Source: Tequatrovirus NIC06P2
Strand: one strand, 5' to 3'
Sequence record: OZ035760.1
Length of the DNA: 64,000 nt
This document shows, one piece after another, positions 3,034 to 56,709 of this stretch (the first letter of the stretch is position 1; each line of letters starts with the position of its first letter). The translations under genes and the position numbers were made by a program. The notes under the pieces were generated by a model. The model searched no databases and was not told where the DNA came from. It saw only the letters and a list, made by a program, of their open reading frames with translations.

Positions 3034-3611
3034 TCACCACAGAATTCGTTGATATTTTCCCAGTTTAACTTATTCAAGTTTTTCTTAGGAACATTAAACA
3101 CTTCAATACCTGCATTTCGCAAAATATCATCCCAACCAGGTTTATTTTTGTCGTATGTTTCGCAATAAACTAGTTTTTTAATTCCAGATTGAGCTATCGC
3201 TTTTGCGCAATCCGGACATGGAGAAAGTGTTACATACATAGTAGCACCTTCAATAGAAGAACCATTTCGTGCAGCAAACAAAATTGCATTTAGTTCAGCA
3301 TGAATTTCATTTTTAGATGACCATTCCGAGTGAGCACTACGATGTTCTTTTGCCAAGACAAAACGATCAGTTGAACCAAATGATACGCATTCAGGCTTAT
3401 GGCCTTGAATGATAGTATGTTTAGGCTTATTCAACAACCATCCTTGCTCAGCAGCATAATCACAACAGTTCACACCCCCTGCGGGTGAACCATTATACCC
3501 AGTAGAAATAATACGTCCATTCTTTTCAATTACTGCTCCTACCTTCCAGGAGCAACATTTTGATTCTTGTGATACTAAATATGCAATTTGAAGTACTGTA
3601 CTCGCTTTCAT
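3030..3611 (-). CDS. cd: dCMP deaminase (193 aa)
   Basis: Cytidine/deoxycytidylate deaminase zinc-binding signature (HAE...PCxxC) and T4 Cd length; synteny. Confidence 0.9.
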   Translation of the reverse strand: MKASTVLQIAYLVSQESKCCSWKVGAVIEKNGRIISTGYNGSPAGGVNCCDYAAEQGWLLNKPKHTIIQGHKPECVSFGSTDRFVLAKEHRSAHSEWSSKNEIHAELNAILFAARNGSSIEGATMYVTLSPCPDCAKAIAQSGIKKLVYCETYDKNKPGWDDILRNAGIEVFNVPKKNLNKLNWENINEFCGE

Positions 3612-3946
3612 TTCATAATCACCAGATAAGCAGATTTAGCAGTTTCAACACGATAAATTTCGTGACGAAGTTTAGTTATACTTTTAATAATAGAACTAAT
3701 TATATTCTGCCCATCTTTAAAGCGGTTTTTCTTGTCAATAAAAATTGCGCCAATCATCTTTTTGTGAAGCTCAACTGGATACTTCGTCACAATAATAGCA
3801 TCATATACAGAAGGATGAATACTATTCACCAGAGTATCATTCATTAAAGTTATTCTAATGAACTGCGCTGTTTCAGAATCAAGCGCTCTATGATCGCCAG
3901 TATCATTTTCAAGACAATTATCAATTATATCAGTTAAATTCATCAT
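3608..3946 (-). CDS. hypothetical protein (cd.x region, 112 aa)
   Basis: ORF translationally coupled to neighbours (overlapping stop/start). Confidence 0.5.
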   Translation of the reverse strand: MMNLTDIIDNCLENDTGDHRALDSETAQFIRITLMNDTLVNSIHPSVYDAIIVTKYPVELHKKMIGAIFIDKKNRFKDGQNIISSIIKSITKLRHEIYRVETAKSAYLVIMK

Positions 3947-4720: not shown

Positions 4721-6135
<1,415 letters not shown>

Positions 6136-6369
6136 TTATTTTTTCTCAACCAATGATTGAATATAATCATGCAGGTCTTTAGATGCTTTACCCCACTTAT
6201 TTTGATATTCATTTTTGAGATTAGCGCGTGATTGAGCTAATAAAACATCATTAGTTGGAGGTAAAGATTCTAATCGCTGAATCTGGCGTCCATAAATCAT
6301 TGCAGCCATCTCGGATTCATAAATCAATCCTTTAAGATGTTCAAATTGATGCCATGAAATCATTTGCAT
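6136..6369 (-). CDS. hypothetical protein (77 aa)
   Basis: Complete ORF. Confidence 0.5.
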   Translation of the reverse strand: MQMISWHQFEHLKGLIYESEMAAMIYGRQIQRLESLPPTNDVLLAQSRANLKNEYQNKWGKASKDLHDYIQSLVEKK

Positions 6370-32640: not shown

Positions 32641-33101
32641 TAGTAAAGGTCCTCAGAGTAAAGTTCTTTTTCATTACCACCACGTTCAATACGTACTTGT
32701 CCAGCGTAAGTTGCAATAATCATTGCTTCTTCACGTGTCCAATAATTACTATATTGGTCAATAAACCCTTGGTCATCATCACAAACTTGCTGAGTAACTA
32801 ATTGAGGTTTAACTACATCTAAAACTTCTGCCATATCTTTAGAATAATGACGAGCACCTGGAATAATAAGAGTTCGTCCATCTTTTAATTTAAAACGGTT
32901 GGCTGCACAGACAATTCGTCGTTGATACTTTTGGTTTTCATCCCAATACACAGTCTGCCAACAGATTTCAGGAACTTCATCTAAAACATTTTGTTCTGTA
33001 TATTCACCGCCGTAAGAAGCTAATTTAGCAGCCAGACTTTCCGGAGTCTCACGCGACAAAGCTTTATCTAACAGAGCTAAACGTTCTTTAAAAGTTTTCA
33101 T
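32640..33101 (-). CDS. hypothetical protein (153 aa)
   Basis: Complete ORF with coupled start/stop to neighbours. Confidence 0.55.
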
Positions 33102-33427
33102 TTAAACCATCCTTTAATACGTTGCCACAAAGTTTTCTGCTGAGCTTTGTTAACACCAATTGAGCGAATAACCGGTTGAGATTCCTGGAATTCTTTATAA
33201 TCATCAAGGTAAATTTCGTAAGCTGCATCTGTAAATGAACTTATTGCTGCCATAAAATTATTGCGAATACCTACTGGAGCATCTTTACTTTCACGAATAA
33301 TCATGTATTTACCAGTCTTAATCTTTACGATAGTTCCAAGATAAGCTCCATGGTACCAAATATCCCAACCCTCTTGAGTAGGTTCTGCACAACGACGAAG
33401 TTCATTAACGATTTCTAACTTGTTCAT
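33098..33427 (-). CDS. hypothetical protein (109 aa)
   Basis: Complete ORF. Confidence 0.5.
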
Positions 33428-33437
33428 TATTTATTCC

Positions 33438-34073
33438 TCACAGTTCAGATGCTACAATGATTACAGCTTCAATGTTTTCTGCCGAGCGTTTAATGTCAAG
33501 ATACACATTACCGTTTTTAGCGATTTTACATGACATTCCGATATCAGTAAATTTCTGAATATGATGTTCCATCATTTTGTATCCAAAAATTCGCATATTT
33601 CCATTGTTGTTAATTTCAAAATTACGAATTCCGTGAGTACGTTTTTCTAAAATAGCGAGATAGTTACTACGATAAGTTTCAACCTTTTTAAGAACAAATC
33701 CATTTTCATCTAGCAGTTTTAACATGAGGTCTTTATCTTCTTCCATATCGGAAGTAATCTCGCGAGCTTTACGAGTTGCTCGTTTTTTCAGCAGTTCCGG
33801 AGCATTTTCTTGTGCATATAAAGTTGCTGCGTTTGAAATAATATCCTGAGCTTCACCAGTAATGATTAATCCATCACCAGATTTCTCCACCAGGCCTTTT
33901 TTAATCAATACCCCAATATTACTATTAACTACTGCGTTACCTAAATCTGGATGCACCTCACGAACTTCTGCAGCTGTAATGAAATCTTTCTTAGCAATAG
34001 TAATTAAAATCGCAGCAGTTTTTTCATTCAGAACATCGTTAGAAGCTTTGATGATGTAAGTTACTTTAGACAT
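33438..34073 (-). CDS. motA: MotA middle-transcription activator (211 aa)
   Basis: Matches T4 MotA length and sequence. Confidence 0.9.
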   Translation of the reverse strand: MSKVTYIIKASNDVLNEKTAAILITIAKKDFITAAEVREVHPDLGNAVVNSNIGVLIKKGLVEKSGDGLIITGEAQDIISNAATLYAQENAPELLKKRATRKAREITSDMEEDKDLMLKLLDENGFVLKKVETYRSNYLAILEKRTHGIRNFEINNNGNMRIFGYKMMEHHIQKFTDIGMSCKIAKNGNVYLDIKRSAENIEAVIIVASEL

Positions 34074-34144
34074 TTTCTAATCTCCGTAATTCTGTATCAG
34101 TAGTTGATAGTTGTATAGTACCACAGTATGCTTTGGTTGTAAAC
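34074..34144 (-). promoter_or_regulatory. early promoter and leader upstream of motA
   Basis: GTTTAC -35 with GGTACTATACAACTATCAACTAC leader; near-duplicate of the cassette at 17342-17415. Confidence 0.5.
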
Positions 34145-34168
34145 CGTTTTGTGAAAAAAATTTAAAAT

Positions 34169-34194
34169 AAAAAAGGGAGAGCCTCGGCTCTCCC
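34169..34194 (-). terminator. intrinsic terminator
   Basis: gggagagcc/ggctctccc stem followed by T-run on the minus strand. Confidence 0.7.
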
Positions 34195-34199
34195 TAAAA

Positions 34200-34349
34200 T
34201 TACTGCATGACTGTGATAACTGTCATGATAACACGTTGAATTCCGAACGCAAGAAGACCTCCTGCTACGGCTGGAACAACACCTAAACCCGCCAGTAAAA
34301 TGCTACCGGATACTAATGCAGCGCTTGTAATACCAATGAATGGACTCAT
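34200..34349 (-). CDS. small hydrophobic peptide (49 aa; motA.1 position)
   Basis: ATG overlaps the gene 52 stop (ATGA); predicted TM peptide MSPFIGITSAALVSGSILLAGLGVVPAVAGGLLAFGIQ... Confidence 0.4.
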   Translation of the reverse strand: MSPFIGITSAALVSGSILLAGLGVVPAVAGGLLAFGIQRVIMTVITVMQ

Positions 34350-35674
34350 TTGATTTCCTCTAAATCTTTGGTGTATTCTGTAACTACATCAGTAGTTTTC
34401 CAATATTCGTTTTCTTCTTTTTTAGCTTTAGCTTCTTCTGCAAGTTTCTTTGCTTCGTCGGAAGTCATATGAAAAATATTCATTCCGACTAGTTTATCAA
34501 CATAAGAAGAATACATATCGATTTTCGAAAGTTCTTCGGTCAGTTCTTTACGAGTTTTACCCTGTACAACAATTTCACCTGAAATTACTTTCTTAATGAA
34601 ATGCGCCTTGGCAAAGGCTAAACGAAAAGCGGACTCAGTTTCTTTAATTTTGTTATCAATTCGTTTTTGGACATAAGTTTTACGAACTTCAACAAAGTCT
34701 TTAATTAAATCAACTACGTTATCGTAAACTTGTAGTTTTCCTTTCTCATTAATAACGGTAATATTCTGAGAACGACGCTCAATCAACCCGAAGTCTTTCA
34801 TAATTTTTGCATGGCGTTCTTCTTCGTTATCGCTCAAAGAATATTCTTTACGGAATTTAACTTTGAATCCAAAACCATGCTCACCACAAGCATCATCCCA
34901 TGTAATGAAGCCTTTATCTTCAAGTGGGTCTAAAATTTTACTCACGTAAGTTTCACGATCATACTTATACGGAATCTCAGTGATATGCATTTGAGTTCGT
35001 GAAGTAAACTTATATGTTCCACGAATTTCATATTGTCCATCAATTTCAACGACTTCACCACGAAATTCTGGGAATTCTACCTTCGGTTTAGTTACTTTCT
35101 TTCCTTGAAGAGCTTGCAGTACAGCTTTCTTGACAGAAGAAACACTATGAGGAAGAATGTAAGTTGCATAACCAGTTGCAATACCGGAAACGCCATTAAG
35201 AAGAACAGTAGGAATAACAGGCAAATAGAAAGCAGGCGGAATGTGTTCTTTATCTTGATGTACCGGAGCATATTCAGTATCTTTATATACGTTATAGAAA
35301 TTTTTACTTACACGAGCAAAAATATAACGACTTGCCGCTGCCTTTTGGACAGTACGAGAACCAAAGTTTCCTTGACCATCTAACAGAGGAAAATTATTAT
35401 TCCAAGTGTTAGCCATCAAAGCACCTGCGTCTTGCGCAGAGTTTTCACCATGATGATATCCAAGGTCCGCTACACCGCCTGCGATAGAAGCGAGTTTGTG
35501 AAACTTATCTTTATTTCCTCGTGCCAAATCAAGAGCTCGAGCAATAACAAATCGTTGAACTGGCTTAAATCCGTCAATCATATTTGGGATAGCACGATTT
35601 TCAACCGTGTACATAGCATAAGCCAATGCTTCATTATCAATGATACTTTTTAAATCGCGATTATTCAGTTGCAT
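34346..35674 (-). CDS. 52: DNA topoisomerase II medium subunit gp52 (442 aa)
   Basis: GyrA-like breakage-reunion domain with active-site Tyr region; T4 gp52 length. Confidence 0.9.
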   Translation of the reverse strand: MQLNNRDLKSIIDNEALAYAMYTVENRAIPNMIDGFKPVQRFVIARALDLARGNKDKFHKLASIAGGVADLGYHHGENSAQDAGALMANTWNNNFPLLDGQGNFGSRTVQKAAASRYIFARVSKNFYNVYKDTEYAPVHQDKEHIPPAFYLPVIPTVLLNGVSGIATGYATYILPHSVSSVKKAVLQALQGKKVTKPKVEFPEFRGEVVEIDGQYEIRGTYKFTSRTQMHITEIPYKYDRETYVSKILDPLEDKGFITWDDACGEHGFGFKVKFRKEYSLSDNEEERHAKIMKDFGLIERRSQNITVINEKGKLQVYDNVVDLIKDFVEVRKTYVQKRIDNKIKETESAFRLAFAKAHFIKKVISGEIVVQGKTRKELTEELSKIDMYSSYVDKLVGMNIFHMTSDEAKKLAEEAKAKKEENEYWKTTDVVTEYTKDLEEIK

Positions 35675-35678
35675 AAAT

Positions 35679-35819
35679 TTACCATACTAGTGAATGTAGT
35701 GCCATAATAACATCAGAAATGAAAAGCACGACTTGAATTAATCCAAACATTACTCCATAATATAGTGCTACCAATAAAGCAGCAAGGGCTAATGAATAGC
35801 CCAAGATTTTCTTAATCAT
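35679..35819 (-). CDS. small hydrophobic peptide (46 aa)
   Basis: Hand-translated ORF MIKKILGYSLALAALLVALYYGVMFGLIQVVLF...; below the track cut-off. Confidence 0.3.
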   Translation of the reverse strand: MIKKILGYSLALAALLVALYYGVMFGLIQVVLFISDVIMALHSLVW

Positions 35820-35970
35820 TAGTAGATAACAACACAAATGTTAAATATGCACACATACCCTGGGCTAAAGCTTGTGAAAACACACTGCTGGCATCGATAC
35901 AGATAGTTAAAACACATGCTACTATCCAACAAATAAATGAAATAACTCCTAATAATTTTGCAATATTCAT
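35812..35970 (-). CDS. small hydrophobic peptide (52 aa)
   Basis: Hand-translated ORF MNIAKLLGVISFICWIVACVLTICIDASS...; overlaps the next ORF by 8 nt. Confidence 0.3.
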   Translation of the reverse strand: MNIAKLLGVISFICWIVACVLTICIDASSVFSQALAQGMCAYLTFVLLSTND

Positions 35971-36066
35971 AATATTCTCCTCAACTATTTTTAAAACCTA
36001 AAATACCAAAGTTTTTAAAATTATTACGATAGAACTGCATCACATGTTCGTTATGGAAATTACTCA

Positions 36067-36525
36067 TTAATATGCCTGCAAAACAAATTTAAAGTTATCA
36101 GCCAACATACGGTTCATTTCTTCAAGCGTTTGATACTCAGAATGATGGTTACGAGTAAACGCCAAAGCTAACTGACCTTTTCCAAATCCTGTCGTCAGAG
36201 GTTTCATCTTAGAAGCAGGCAGATAAAACACTGTGTATGGAACATTGTTATTTGCAATAGTACGCGCAAGTTGAGACCGGCGTTGACGAATATGACTTAA
36301 AACCGCACTGAATCCTTGCTTAGAACGCTGATTACCTACATAAAATCGTGCAGACACACATGGATTACTAAATGGACGACCATCTAATTTACTTACTAAA
36401 AAGTAAAATCCAGGTTTAGATAAAATATCTTTATGTGGAGTTCCTAAAAACCATTCACCACCCTTGATTGTACCAATAACAGTAGCGCCTGCGTTGTTCA
36501 GATCAGTAACAGTCATATATTTCAT
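36067..36525 (-). CDS. ndd: Ndd nucleoid disruption protein (152 aa from MKYMTV)
   Basis: Matches T4 Ndd; track ORF has a 16-codon N-terminal extension. Confidence 0.85.
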
Positions 36526-36585
36526 ATTAATTTCCTCTAAATTATTTTCTACTCCAAGGCCGCATGAATACACACGGCCATTAAA

Positions 36586-36801
36586 TTAATCGTCGCAGTC
36601 GACGCTCAATTCCCAAAACTCTTCTACGGTATAAGTTTCAGTATCATTTTCAATACAGAAACGTTCATTACTGTTATTTACTAAAGTAGCGTTAACTGTC
36701 GGTTTCTCGCTGGTGCTCTTAAGAGGCGAAACACGAATTAACTGATCACCGTTATCTAAACAAAAAATTTCACCAACTTTTACATCTTTAAAAATTTTCA
36801 T
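36586..36801 (-). CDS. hypothetical protein (71 aa)
   Basis: Complete ORF. Confidence 0.45.
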   Translation of the reverse strand: MKIFKDVKVGEIFCLDNGDQLIRVSPLKSTSEKPTVNATLVNNSNERFCIENDTETYTVEEFWELSVDCDD

Positions 36802-36916
36802 AATTCACCTCAAGGAGTATAAAATCCAAATGCAGTTGTTGACCATCCCATCCAATATGGAAAATTTGCACCAATGTAAAACATAAGAATATAAAACCAA
36901 ATGTTTAGTAAATTCA

Positions 36917-37135
36917 TCATTTTACACCATTCCAAATTGTTTCAACTACGGATTTTAAACCATTTTGATGAATATCAATTCCGACTACTGTCATCAAATA
37001 GATTCCAACTACAACTGAACCTAAGGCAAAAATCAGCATGAAAATGAATAAAGCCGGAAAAATATTATCGAAAAACCATTCAATAAATGTAAAAGCACTG
37101 CGTTTACGCTTCATATTTTCCTCACATAAATCCAA
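36917..37135 (-). CDS. small membrane protein (72 aa)
   Basis: Two predicted hydrophobic helices. Confidence 0.45.
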   Translation of the reverse strand: MDLCEENMKRKRSAFTFIEWFFDNIFPALFIFMLIFALGSVVVGIYLMTVVGIDIHQNGLKSVVETIWNGVK

Positions 37136-37235
37136 AGTAAACGTTTAATACATCAATCATTAAAACGATTGGGAATATACTCAAAACTAATAATATTATA
37201 ACTACATTCCATATAGCTTTAATAATCTTTTTCAT
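37122..37235 (-). CDS. small membrane peptide (37 aa, MKKIIKAIWNVVIILLVLSIF...)
   Basis: Starts directly after the conserved early promoter/leader; the longer 82-aa track ORF reads through the promoter. Confidence 0.4.
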   Translation of the reverse strand: MKKIIKAIWNVVIILLVLSIFPIVLMIDVLNVYFGFM

Positions 37236-37293
37236 TTTCTGTTCCTCCGTAGTTGATAGGGTAATAATACCACAGAGGAACAGTCTTGTAAAC
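37236..37293 (-). promoter_or_regulatory. early promoter and leader (GTTTAC...GGTATTATTACCCTATCAACTACGGAGGAAC)
   Basis: Conserved cassette shared with 16651-16705 and 37743-37799. Confidence 0.5.
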
Positions 37294-37478
37294 AACTTTT
37301 TTAAAAATATTCGTAATAAATGTGAATACCAACTACTACCGCTGAAACCTGTGCAACCCACCACGCACAAGCAATAAGTACAGAATTCATAATTTTCATA
37401 ATAACCTCATTACAAAAGTAAATGTTAAACAAATTACTGGAATACTAATTAACCAAACAAAACACCACCACAGTGAAC

Positions 37479-37742
37479 TCATAGCTCAATCTCAATGATT
37501 TCAAGATTATTTTCTTTAATAGCTTTCTTTAAATCATCGTAAATAAGAACTTCCCAAGAATTGTTTAAATCACCATTCAACAAACGCTCTTGTTGCAATT
37601 TATCAGTAAGATATGGTTGATCTGATTCATATTTAGACAATCCCAATGAAATAAATGATGTTGCATCATCAATTTCAGAATATTGTACATAAACAAATTC
37701 ACCTGTGATTTTATGTTTAACATAAAAGAATTTAAATTTCAT
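37479..37742 (-). CDS. hypothetical protein (87 aa)
   Basis: Complete ORF with promoter/leader cassette upstream. Confidence 0.5.
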   Translation of the reverse strand: MKFKFFYVKHKITGEFVYVQYSEIDDATSFISLGLSKYESDQPYLTDKLQQERLLNGDLNNSWEVLIYDDLKKAIKENNLEIIEIEL

Positions 37743-37799
37743 TTTTGTTCCTCCGTAGTTGATAGGGTAATAGTACCACGGTCCTTGTGGTATGTAAAC
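37743..37799 (-). promoter_or_regulatory. early promoter and leader (GTTTAC...GGTACTATTACCCTATCAACTACGGAGGAAC)
   Basis: GTTTAC -35, 17-nt spacer, conserved leader with GGAGG Shine-Dalgarno. Confidence 0.55.
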
Positions 37800-37815
37800 T
37801 AGTTTATGAAAATTT

Positions 37816-38373
37816 TTAGATGGAAAGATACCATCCGTTGTAGTTGCTTTTTCGCACTACCTTACGAAGGTCTTCTCTATCCCCAATGAACTTCGGAGTG
37901 TACTGGATGACACCTGGATGAATTTCTTTAGTGTTGAATATAATTATACAGTCCGCGACTTGATGATTTAGAATGGGCCCTAGATTTATTCCAGAACCGT
38001 ATGGATACTCTCCGCTGCATCCTGTTGTTACCGAAATCCAACGTGAGTCAGTTTGATGTGTCTTAACTTCTACACGAAGCCCACAGTATTTTGGATGTGC
38101 TAAAACATCCCATGCATATGTGTACGGATCATCGACATCTTCTTGGCCTTTATTGACATATCCGCTTAGCCAATCTGCCACAAAAAACTCTGCGTACACA
38201 GCGATACGGCATCTTTCGATAACTTCTGCCTTATCCTGATTTGGGTTCTGTTTTAAAGAGTATCTTACAGTATCAGCAATTTTGACCTTCATTTCATTGG
38301 TTAAATCGCTGTTCGATAGAGTAAATGTCGGAATCTGAAATAGTCTCTGTAACCCAGGATTCGTTTTCTGCAT
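37816..38373 (-). CDS. denB: endonuclease IV (185 aa)
   Basis: Matches T4 DenB length and sequence. Confidence 0.85.
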   Translation of the reverse strand: MQKTNPGLQRLFQIPTFTLSNSDLTNEMKVKIADTVRYSLKQNPNQDKAEVIERCRIAVYAEFFVADWLSGYVNKGQEDVDDPYTYAWDVLAHPKYCGLRVEVKTHQTDSRWISVTTGCSGEYPYGSGINLGPILNHQVADCIIIFNTKEIHPGVIQYTPKFIGDREDLRKVVRKSNYNGWYLSI

Positions 38374-44604: not shown

Positions 44605-44781
44605 TTACCCTTTAAGTAAGTCGTAAAAACCACCATTCACATGCTTAGGAGCAGAAGGCCGACGAGTAGACAAACGATGACATTTAGGGCAAACATCATT
44701 TTCTCGTTCAGAAATCTTTTTAATTTTTTCATATTCATGCCCGCAATCTTCGGATTGGCATTTATAATCATACATTGGCAT
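44605..44781 (-). CDS. small zinc-ribbon protein (58 aa; CxxC...CxxC)
   Basis: Hand-translated: MPMYDYKCQSEDCGHEYEK...CPKCHRL...; AAGGA Shine-Dalgarno; start overlaps upstream stop. Confidence 0.45.
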   Translation of the reverse strand: MPMYDYKCQSEDCGHEYEKIKKISERENDVCPKCHRLSTRRPSAPKHVNGGFYDLLKG

Positions 44782-56508: not shown

Positions 56509-56709
56509 ATGGTACAAAAATTAATGGCACTTGTTAATGCCATAAAAGGTAATAAGAAACGTATAGCTTTTACTATTTCTGCTATGGTAGGAATTTTACT
56601 CTGGAACTTTATTCTATCACCTGTTGCAATTGCACATGGTATTAATATTCCAGTAGTTACTCTTGATACATTTGTAGATTTAGCATTTGCTTTAGTTGGG
56701 TTGATTTAA
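56509..56709 (+). CDS. small membrane protein on the plus strand (66 aa)
   Basis: Strong AAGGAGG Shine-Dalgarno 7 nt upstream of the ATG; two hydrophobic segments; convergent with gene 61, stops overlap. Confidence 0.45.
   Translation: MVQKLMALVNAIKGNKKRIAFTISAMVGILLWNFILSPVAIAHGINIPVVTLDTFVDLAFALVGLI

Follow-up and report, generated by a model that had tools for sequence, protein, structure and literature searches.

Small hydrophobic ORFs around gene 52 and ndd

Are the very short hydrophobic open reading frames that surround gene 52 (encoding the topoisomerase II medium subunit) and ndd in the 64,000-nt stretch of OZ035760.1 analysed here (the window) genuine genes, and what could their products do in the infected cell? 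A sequence-only reading had listed five such ORFs, and all five are indeed present on the minus strand, with the start of one of them revised below. Three further hydrophobic ORFs that it did not list, ndd.2, ndd.5 and ndd.6, lie in the same run. The features considered here are as follows:

34174..34195, minus strand: intrinsic-terminator-like stem-loop and T-run, directly after motA.1
34200..34349, minus strand: motA.1, 49 aa, hydrophobic and rich in Gly/Ala, final gene ahead of the terminator
35679..35819, minus strand: 52.1, 46-aa hydrophobic protein (counted from the ATG)
35812..35970, minus strand: ac, 52 aa, acridine sensitivity ("acridine resistance") gene
36810..36920, minus strand: ndd.2, 36 aa, aromatic-rich, moderately hydrophobic
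36917..37114, minus strand: ndd.2a/ndd.3, single 65-aa ORF, ATG at 37114 after GAGGAAA
37122..37235, minus strand: ndd.4, 37 aa, single predicted TM helix, GGAGG Shine-Dalgarno site
37246..37306, minus strand: T4 early-promoter cassette upstream of ndd.4
37301..37399, minus strand: ndd.5, 32-aa hydrophobic protein
37396..37482, minus strand: ndd.6, 28-aa hydrophobic protein

Sequence comparison identifies the window as DNA of a Tequatrovirus, i.e. a T4-like phage. The best database match of the region is a Tequatrovirus record (98.4% identity), at least 80% of the region is covered by 481 phage records, and the gene order is the same as in the T4 reference NC_000866, with about 97-100% identity to the T4 proteins. 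The five listed ORFs have one-to-one T4 counterparts (motA.1, 52.1, ac, ndd.2a/ndd.3 and ndd.4), all annotated in NC_000866 with product names of the "predicted membrane/periplasmic" type. Since they are already annotated in T4, these ORFs are, as judged by sequence comparison, long-known T4 early genes, ordinary for a T4-like phage, rather than a discovery. In the family scan all eight small ORFs match PHROG families, and three of them match Pfam families (52.1, DUF7396; ndd.2a/3, DUF7248; Ac, PF26944). The NCBIfam scan of all eight proteins returned no matches, and therefore a bacterial counterpart of a known kind is absent; likewise, the Rfam scan of 33900-37900 returned no RNA families, and therefore the non-coding alternative is absent as well. 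We propose, with a probability of about 0.85, that the eight micro-proteins (28-65 aa) are encoded by the small, dispensable early genes which T4-type phages carry around gene 52 and ndd. The suggestion that such micro-proteins are overlooked does not hold for NC_000866 or for the PHROG families, in which all of them are represented, but it is partly justified for the relatives, whose automatic annotation is inconsistent: 52.1 is absent from the records of phages 132, PYps47T and G8, ndd.4 from that of G8, and ndd.6 from several records.

Evidence for coding and for clustering

Hydrophobic small ORFs, counted as ATG-initiated ORFs of 25-80 aa with H19>=2.0, are common in the window. There are 35 of them, and the fact that 26 are embedded in larger ORFs speaks for the view that the small ORFs are not genes but frames left open by chance in AT-rich DNA. 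Only 3 of these 26 carry a Shine-Dalgarno-like motif, and the hydrophobic fraction is similar among gap ORFs (9/71) and embedded ORFs (26/229). The embedded hydrophobic ORFs look like chance occurrences, and hydrophobicity alone is no proof of a gene. The clustering that the sequence-only reading had pointed out, on the other hand, is not due to chance: seven of the nine hydrophobic ORFs situated between larger genes fall within 34200-37482, which is 5% of the window.

Against chance frames, the small ORFs discussed here fit into the spaces that larger genes leave free, a Shine-Dalgarno site precedes most of them, and they form a chain joined via ATGA or 8-nt start/stop overlaps, downstream of T4 early-promoter cassettes and upstream of one terminator. 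Within the genus (14 Tequatrovirus loci compared), pN/pS ranges from 0.02 to 0.23, apart from ndd.4 (about 1.1, see below). In a wider survey by local HMM iteration over 41 gp52 loci of T4-like phages, the family alignments reveal motifs conserved across several genera. Hence, the small ORFs evolve as proteins under purifying selection, and for ac there is also genetics on record. The low pN/pS values and the cross-genus conservation effectively refute the view that these ORFs are chance frames, to which we attach next to no credence. The failure of T4 proteomics to detect the proteins could still be quoted in its favor: in the T4 time-course the transcripts of these genes are early and the proteins undetected (Class_P = NA). 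However, this is weak negative evidence, because the tryptic peptides expected from each small protein would be exclusively very long and hydrophobic.

The terminator-like stem-loop that follows motA.1 has a stem of 9 bp, 6 of them GC pairs, and then TTTTTATTTT; it is annotated as a terminator in phage G8 and ends the transcription unit of the small ORFs and gene 52. The cassette upstream of ndd.4 contains a -35 element TTTACA, a spacer of 17 nt, TG-TATTAT and then the leader ATCAACTACGGAGG; the promoter scan gave 10/12 matches plus the TG, which is a consensus match only. The cassette is a copy of a 61-nt repeat that occurs three times, with the two further copies at 34097-34157, upstream of motA, and at 37752-37812, upstream of an 87-aa ORF.

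The description of the five listed proteins as mostly transmembrane is borne out by the best 19-residue Kyte-Doolittle means of 2.26-3.03 and GRAVY values of 0.85-1.86. In each of the five, 20-38 consecutive residues are uncharged, which is enough to cross the bilayer, and on these features the five are predicted to be integral inner-membrane micro-proteins.

The neighbors of gene 52

The ATG of motA.1 overlaps the stop codon of gene 52 (ATGA). Its product is identical to T4 MotA.1 (P39512) at 49/49 positions and matches PHROG 3487 (E=2e-31). A full-length copy is found in 13 of the 14 Tequatrovirus loci compared (pN/pS 0.09), and homologues with 37-39% identity occur in Kosakonia/Enterobacter-type phages. 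The RefSeq name "predicted periplasmic protein" given to T4 MotA.1 is a prediction only.

On the other side of gene 52, the first 8 nt of 52.1 are also the last 8 nt of ac (ATGATTAA). The protein is identical to T4 gp52.1 (P18922; 46/46), belongs to PHROG 3595 and matches DUF7396 over residues 1-46 of 46 (E=6e-23, 81.1 bits, cut-off 27). Its pN/pS is 0.23 within the genus and 0.06-0.12 in comparison with JS98-like phages, where pS is about 0.4.

It is conceivable that 52.1 and the ORF at the motA.1 position encode membrane partners of the translationally coupled gp52, and that the ndd.x peptides could similarly partner Ndd. The 52.1 stop lies 4 nt upstream of the gene 52 ATG, and 52.1 is present in 28/41 gp52 loci; in 24/40 loci the gp52 stop codon is also where a hydrophobic ORF begins, and these ORFs belong to at least six unrelated sequence types; and when Tequatrovirus is compared with JS98-like phages, conservation is higher for 52.1 than for gp52 (lower pN). 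The T4 topoisomerase subunits were also reportedly found to be membrane-associated in work of the 1970s. However, gp52 occurs without such a stop-codon ORF in 16/40 loci, including many T4-like lineages, growth persists in the sa-delta-9 deletion that lacks 52.1, and coupling by ATGA overlap is general in T4 operons. We therefore find a partnership with gp52 or Ndd improbable.

The ndd.x genes

The ORF ndd.2a/3 had been read as 36917..37135 (72 aa). The ORF is there, but that start would be a TTG, and initiation at the ATG at 37114, which yields 65 aa, is likelier; it is annotated as a 198-nt CDS in related phage records. The N-terminus of the protein is basic (MKRKR), a segment of 30 residues is free of charges, and a conserved motif, GLKSVVETIWNG, is found at the C-terminal side. 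It matches PHROG 2401 and, over residues 6-63 of 65, DUF7248 (68.1 bits, cut-off 27), and the latter match spans the parts annotated separately in T4 as ndd.3 and ndd.2a. A full-length match is found in 493 phage records, pN/pS among the Tequatrovirus loci is 0.10, and AlphaFold2 predicts one helix (residues 5-64, pLDDT 90). The ORF is disrupted in both the T4 and the T2 reference records, and it is intact in another T4 record, KJ477684. Its stop is overlapped by the start of ndd.2 (ATGA), the product of which is identical to T4 Ndd.2 at 33/36 positions (PHROG 4135; pN/pS 0.18).

Ndd.4 starts with the basic sequence MKKIIK and has a conserved Asp close to the helix end; it is identical to T4 Ndd.4 (P39249) at 36/37 positions of the shared part and matches PHROG 3098 (E=7e-21). 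The gene is found in 25/41 loci; the Asp is invariant among them, and their N-termini conform roughly to KK..K.IWN. Across genera its pN/pS is about 0.3 at 59-62% amino-acid identity; within Tequatrovirus the value of about 1.1 comes from a pS of 0.019 and only five variable sites. We also considered that ndd.4 might be an island constrained at the nucleotide level. This idea was dropped because equally flat patches of diversity elsewhere, e.g. in gene 52 and 52.1, fit mosaic recombination.

An ATGA overlap joins the start of ndd.6 to the stop of the 87-aa ORF that precedes it, and another joins the start of ndd.5 to the stop of ndd.6. Ndd.6 is identical to its T4 counterpart (28/28; PHROG 8851; pN/pS 0.10) and occurs in 13/41 loci, while Ndd.5 (31/32 identical to T4 Ndd.5; PHROG 5011; pN/pS 0.14) is limited among the 41 loci to those of Tequatrovirus.

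Ac and acridine sensitivity

The Ac protein matches T4 Ac (51 aa, P18924) at 51/51 positions and has one extra Thr before the C-terminal ND. It matches PHROG 2501 over its full length (E=3.7e-25), relatives carry a precomputed PF26944.1 assignment, and pN/pS is the lowest of the set (0.02 in the Tequatrovirus loci). AlphaFold2 predicts helices at 3-24 and 28-51 (pLDDT 76.5), i.e. a two-helix hairpin. A word-indexed protein search with Ac returned eight close clusters, all of Tequatrovirus type except for one partial "Enterococcus faecalis" sequence; the distant Ac-like ORFs come solely from the local HMM iteration over 41 loci. In the T2 reference record ac is disrupted.

The sequence-only reading had remarked that proteins of this kind can modulate host membrane functions. 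They are indeed products of real small genes and mostly transmembrane, and ac has a documented membrane-related phenotype; it is the only one of the eight small genes with a phenotype on record, and our literature searches found no functional study of motA.1, ndd.2a, ndd.4 or gp52.1. How much acridine infected cells accumulate, and how sensitive they are to it, depends on ac. Resistance to acriflavine results from ac knock-out or from the G38R substitution, and expression of Ac makes E. coli sensitive to acriflavine and ampicillin (10.1101/2025.06.30.662393); the same view of Ac is cited in PNAS in 2026. As the most likely mechanism, Ac would raise intracellular acridine by blocking efflux, with AcrAB-TolC as the proposed candidate target on the basis of indirect growth assays (10.1101/2025.06.30.662393).

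The indirect nature of these assays leaves some room for the view, going back to Silver in the 1960s, that Ac (and possibly its neighbors) raises envelope permeability or uptake, or partly dissipates membrane energy, rather than blocking a pump. According to a summary of the early work, the membrane undergoes an early, energy-dependent change by which acridine uptake rises (10.1101/2025.06.30.662393). In addition, Ac bears no similarity to AcrZ: BLASTP gave no alignments at E<=100 (with an AcrZ sequence entered by hand), and the candidate homology between the two was rejected on this ground. However, Ac also sensitizes cells to ampicillin, which the authors ascribe to efflux (10.1101/2025.06.30.662393), and general leakiness is not among the reported effects of Ac. 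We thus consider increased permeability rather unlikely, and Ac is now tentatively tied to efflux.

Proposed roles at the membrane

We suggest that, soon after infection, each micro-protein would enter the inner membrane of the host, Ac as a two-helix hairpin, and Ndd.2a/3 and Ndd.4 as proteins with one span and the N-terminus inside. Ndd.2a/3 would expose its conserved C-terminal peptide of about 19 aa to the periplasm; the AlphaFold2 helix predictions and the charge distribution are consistent with these topologies. Each of the proteins probably binds or perturbs a component of the host envelope. Against the preferred explanation one can cite the within-genus pN/pS of ndd.4, the disrupted genes in the T4 (ndd.2a/3) and T2 (ndd.2a/3 and ac) reference records, and the fact that the whole block from 52.1 to denB can be deleted, as in sa-delta-9, with a phage yield about half normal. 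The sa-delta-9 deletion also abolishes T4's stimulation of phosphatidylglycerol synthesis, but the small ORFs are not specifically implicated, because mutants lacking only dCTPase, endonuclease IV (denB) and Alc lose the stimulation as well.

Alternatively, the micro-proteins could act in conflicts between phages or with phage defence, i.e. in superinfection exclusion, lysis timing or the countering of membrane-acting abortive infection. They would then be comparable to rIIA/rIIB next door and to other small membrane proteins of T4 such as Imm, Sp, RI and RIII. In laboratory hosts the genes can be dispensed with, and the block can be deleted; the content of this region, flanked by promoter cassettes, turns over between genera, like the modular shuffling described in T4-like phages; and the small genes are next to stp, for which an interaction with the host Prr restriction/anticodon-nuclease system is on record, and near rIIB. 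However, no such phenotype was found for any of them in the literature searched, and the family scans revealed no homology to Imm, Sp or RI, which makes this role unlikely in our opinion.

It is tempting to go further and to regard the micro-proteins as a toolkit of small transmembrane binders, each devoted to one host inner-membrane machine (the efflux pump in the case of Ac), with 52.1 and the ORF that begins at the gp52 stop perhaps linking the topoisomerase to the membrane. This speculation, which draws on the variety of unrelated hydrophobic ORFs downstream of gene 52 and on the conservation of 52.1 relative to gp52, strikes us as quite unlikely to be right. Returning to small non-essential early genes as the preferred explanation, the locus has a calibration value for genome scanning, as the reading of raw sequence recovered real micro-protein genes that were already catalogued in T4. 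As antibacterial leads, phage-encoded small proteins able to disable membrane machines of the host are of interest, but the window adds no new members to them.

Comparison with known systems

The closest known system is T4 itself. MotA.1 of T4 has the same sequence, the same overlap with the gene 52 stop and the same terminator behind it, and T4 gp52.1 has the same sequence and the same position directly upstream of gene 52; no differences were found in either case. T4 Ndd.2a (40 aa, P39245) occupies the same locus and is identical at 38/40 positions to the C-terminal 40 residues of the 65-aa protein. In T4, however, Ndd.2a and Ndd.3 (26 aa) are separate, whereas the window and most relatives have one ORF; the separate "ndd.3" frame in the T4 reference is due to a 1-nt deletion that splits it. 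T4 Ndd.4 is annotated as a 42-aa protein, but the upstream ATG from which it starts is ACG in the window, and the shared ATG after GGAGG gives 37 aa, as in the annotation of relatives. T4 Ac is likewise encoded upstream of gene 52, with stp and 52.1 as its neighbors on either side, and has the same two-helix prediction. It lacks the extra Thr, an allele known from phage PP01, which is still acriflavine-sensitive (10.1101/2025.06.30.662393).

Outside phages, the obvious comparison is with E. coli AcrZ (49 aa), which binds AcrB. AcrZ has a single TM helix, whereas Ac has two predicted helices, and their sequences are dissimilar. Ac is nonetheless similar to AcrZ in size and likewise mostly transmembrane, and, if the efflux model is right, the two would be analogous in function only.

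Identity of the small hydrophobic ORFs

All five small hydrophobic ORFs that the sequence-only reading had taken for overlooked peptides around gene 52 and ndd are present in the window at the positions given, but they turn out to be T4 genes. Three further hydrophobic ORFs of the same run, ndd.2, ndd.5 and ndd.6, were absent from its list. The eight ORFs are:

34200..34349, minus strand, motA.1
35679..35819, minus strand, 52.1
35812..35970, minus strand, ac
36810..36920, minus strand, ndd.2
36917..37135, minus strand, ndd.2a/ndd.3
37122..37235, minus strand, ndd.4
37301..37399, minus strand, ndd.5
37396..37482, minus strand, ndd.6

All eight proteins match PHROG families; in Pfam, 52.1 corresponds to DUF7396 and Ndd.2a/3 to DUF7248, and relatives of Ac carry PF26944. 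MotA.1 (49/49 residues), gp52.1 (46/46) and, apart from one additional Thr, Ac (51/51) are identical to their T4 counterparts, while Ndd.4 shares 36/37 residues and the 65-aa Ndd.2a/3 shares 38/40 with T4 Ndd.2a over its C-terminal part. Between 33.4 and 39.6 kb every gene lies on the minus strand, and the gene order is that of T4: motA, motA.1, 52, 52.1, ac, stp, ndd, ndd.1, ndd.2, ndd.2a/ndd.3, ndd.4, ndd.5, ndd.6, an extra 87-aa ORF, denB, denB.1, rIIB. The stretch 34000-37800 is matched by 901 phage records, nearly all from T4-like phages of Escherichia, Shigella, Yersinia, Salmonella and Citrobacter (481 cover at least 80% of it); Tequatrovirus BCH953P4 is 98.4% identical. On the grounds of both sequence and synteny, the eight ORFs are members of the T4 families rather than analogues, and the finding is already known, as part of the catalogued T4 gene set.

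Hydrophobicity by itself is no evidence of a gene in an AT-rich genome. With a hydrophobic small ORF defined as an ATG-initiated ORF of 25-80 aa containing a strongly hydrophobic 19-residue segment, the window holds 35, of which 26 are buried within larger ORFs (3 of these 26 with a Shine-Dalgarno-like motif). Nine are located in gaps between larger genes, seven of them inside 34200-37482. Elsewhere in the window, the only two such ORFs are 44637-44771 (minus strand, 44 aa) and 56509-56709 (plus strand, 66 aa). The small ORFs of the run occupy intergenic gaps, GAGG/GGAGG sites precede most of them, and ATGA overlaps connect the 87-aa ORF with ndd.6, ndd.6 with ndd.5, ndd.2a/3 with ndd.2, and 52 with motA.1; ac and 52.1 overlap by 8 nt. 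A scan of the small-ORF region found no Rfam family.

Gene boundaries

The ORF at 36917..37135 exists, but the length of 72 aa initially assigned to it requires a TTG start, whereas the ATG at 37114, which follows GAGGAAA, yields 65 aa, as annotated in relatives. In the T4 record NC_000866 this frame is split into ndd.3 (26 aa, 6049-6129) and ndd.2a (40 aa, 5933-6055) through the loss of one nucleotide, the G in ATGAAGCGT. The unsplit ORF (window 36917-37114) is intact here, in TadeuszReichstein, AndreasVesalius and the T4 record KJ477684, and in 493 phage records; the T4 deletion is likewise missing from T2, where the ORF is interrupted by a nonsense codon. DUF7248 extends across both halves, and the separate "Ndd.3" probably reflects either an annotation artefact or a laboratory-strain mutation.

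The T4 annotation gives Ndd.4 a length of 42 aa by starting at an ATG further upstream (MEEQK...), a codon that is ACG in the window. The five extra codons (6251-6265 in NC_000866, 37236-37250 in the window) include the GGAGG that serves as Shine-Dalgarno site for the downstream ATG common to both; together, these two features argue that the 37-aa Ndd.4 is the likely product in all these phages.

Conservation

Iterated local HMM searches of 41 gp52 loci found 52.1 in 28, ndd.4 in 25, Ac-like sequences in 14, ndd.2a/3 and ndd.6 in 13 each, ndd.2 in 11, motA.1 in 8 and ndd.5 in 5. Among the conserved motifs, 52.1 has a C-terminal ...S(L/I)xW, Ndd.4 an invariant Asp, and Ndd.2a/3 (D/N/E)GLK(S/G) with a variable tail of the W/MNG type behind it; the closer Ac-like sequences share a polar SV(F)SQA loop.

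Among 14 Tequatrovirus loci, pN/pS is 0.02 for ac, 0.09 for motA.1, 0.10 for ndd.2a/3 and ndd.6, 0.14 for ndd.5, 0.18 for ndd.2 and 0.23 for 52.1, compared with 0.02-0.09 for gp52, motA, ndd and ndd.1. The within-genus value for ndd.4 (1.1) is based on just 5 variable sites, too few to inform; in other genera its homologues are 59-62% identical, with pN/pS of ~0.3. The 52.1 protein and its JS98-type homologue share 91-96% identity (pS ~0.4, pN/pS 0.06-0.12), as compared to 81% (pS ~0.7) for gp52 of the same JS98-like genomes (loci L008-L010, L034, L044), and the pN of 52.1 (0.03-0.05) is below that of gp52 (0.125). Because pS also differs between the two genes, the conservation of 52.1 would reflect either unusually strong constraint or a more recent exchange of the gene.

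Expression signals and predicted topology

A 61-nt T4 early-promoter cassette, recognized by consensus (GTTTACA, 17 nt, TGGTAyTAT, then the leader ATCAACTACGGAGG), occurs in three copies that are 66-70% identical to the reference copy:

34097-34157, minus strand, upstream of motA
37246-37306, minus strand, upstream of ndd.4
37752-37812, minus strand, upstream of the 87-aa ORF

Conserved promoter modules of this type have been proposed as the means by which T4-like phages shuffle gene cassettes, with the exchange of ndd.4/.5 given as an example (PMC4122927). A consensus match to a strong terminator-like hairpin lies downstream of motA.1. Independent support for these expression signals comes from a T4 time-course, in which the transcripts of motA.1, 52.1, ac, stp and ndd.2-ndd.6 are classed as early; all their proteins are listed as not detected (Table S2, PMC9697503). 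The non-detection is weak evidence, since trypsin would be expected to release nothing but very long, hydrophobic peptides from each small protein. The T4 proteins detected by proteomics also formed the starting set for a screen of early Mosigvirus proteins, so that the small peptides were presumably never candidates.

For Ac, AlphaFold2 (single sequence, pLDDT 76.5) predicts two helices, 3-24 and 28-51, interrupted at I25-D26-A27, in agreement with an ESMFold model shown in a preprint (10.1101/2025.06.30.662393). Ndd.2a/3 comprises an N-terminal MKRKR, 30 uncharged residues and a conserved 19-aa tail, and is modelled as a single helix over 5-64 (AlphaFold2, pLDDT 90); the positive-inside rule would place the tail in the periplasm. 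Ndd.4 consists of MKKIIK and one predicted TM segment, and the uncharged stretches of MotA.1 (Gly/Ala-rich) and 52.1 span 38 and 31 residues, respectively. Where RefSeq product names say "periplasmic" or "outer membrane", this reflects old predictions rather than data.

Neighbouring ORFs and annotation in relatives

At the gp52 stop codon (34346-34349 in the window), a hydrophobic ORF of 22-77 aa begins in 24 of 40 loci, via ATGA or a 9-nt overlap. These ORFs fall into six or more types unrelated in sequence (motA.1-like, 49 aa; JS98-type, 34 aa; Klebsiella Mineola-type, 23 aa; Citrobacter CF1-type, 45-46 aa; further ones of 22, 26 and 77 aa): the slot keeps its place, while its sequence turns over. 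Several, e.g. in JS98 and the Klebsiella Mineola-type phages, are unannotated in GenBank.

The micro-genes are annotated inconsistently across the GenBank records of relatives (L003, L046, L047, L049, L050). The annotation of 52.1 is missing in phage 132, PYps47T and G8, and that of ndd.4 in G8, several records have no annotated ndd.6 or stp, and an Ac homologue is labelled "sugar ABC transporter permease" and, elsewhere, motA.1 "transcriptional regulator".

Three neighbouring ORFs deserve mention. Neither T4 nor T2 has the non-hydrophobic 87-aa ORF between denB and ndd.6 (37479-37742, minus strand; PHROG 2390), and among Tequatroviruses it is hypervariable (nucleotide diversity 0.2-0.3 vs ~0.03 in the flanks; other alleles ~53% identical). 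Stp (35981-36067, minus strand; 28 aa) diverges at its C-terminus from T4 (...NNLKTKGVFGRQ; 19/26 identical), and the stp DNA of most relatives aligns over the first 55 nt only. A 109-aa ORF adjoining motA (33098-33427, minus strand) is 98% identical to the upstream-extended frame of T4 arn.4, which is annotated as 68 aa and has Ile at the position of the window ORF's start Met. To judge by its size and position beside motA alone, it may be the counterpart of Gp94/Emp of Mosigvirus AV110, a 109-aa elongasome-targeting protein (bioRxiv 10.64898/2026.09.14.751387).

Function

A literature search found no functional study of motA.1, 52.1, ndd.2a or ndd.4. The block from 52.1 to denB can be deleted (sa-delta-9) with a yield about half normal, and the deletion abolishes the T4 stimulation of phospholipid synthesis (PMC6071114). 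This does not point to the small peptides in particular, because stimulation of phosphatidylglycerol is also lost in mutants lacking only dCTPase, endonuclease IV and Alc (PMC6071114).

Only ac is characterised among the eight genes. Acriflavine-resistant T4 arises by ac knock-outs, indels and the G38R substitution, and E. coli expressing Ac is sensitised to acriflavine (~3 logs) and ampicillin; the +Thr allele present in the window is known from PP01 and is still sensitive (10.1101/2025.06.30.662393). The T2 record LC348380 contains TCA-to-TAA nonsense codons in ac (codon 11) and ndd.2a/3 (about 2415-2580 and 3518-3720), and because of the former the sequenced T2 stock is likely ac-null; reference and laboratory T2 are shown as separate sequences in the Ac preprint (10.1101/2025.06.30.662393). 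Its authors propose that Ac blocks AcrAB-TolC, a proposal that recurs as an assumption in a 2026 PNAS paper; the older reading, according to which Ac acts via uptake or permeability, is a live rival. Direct comparison found no sequence similarity between Ac and AcrZ, the AcrB-binding small protein of E. coli, and the resemblance to AcrZ and other bacterial small-protein regulators is a functional analogy at most.
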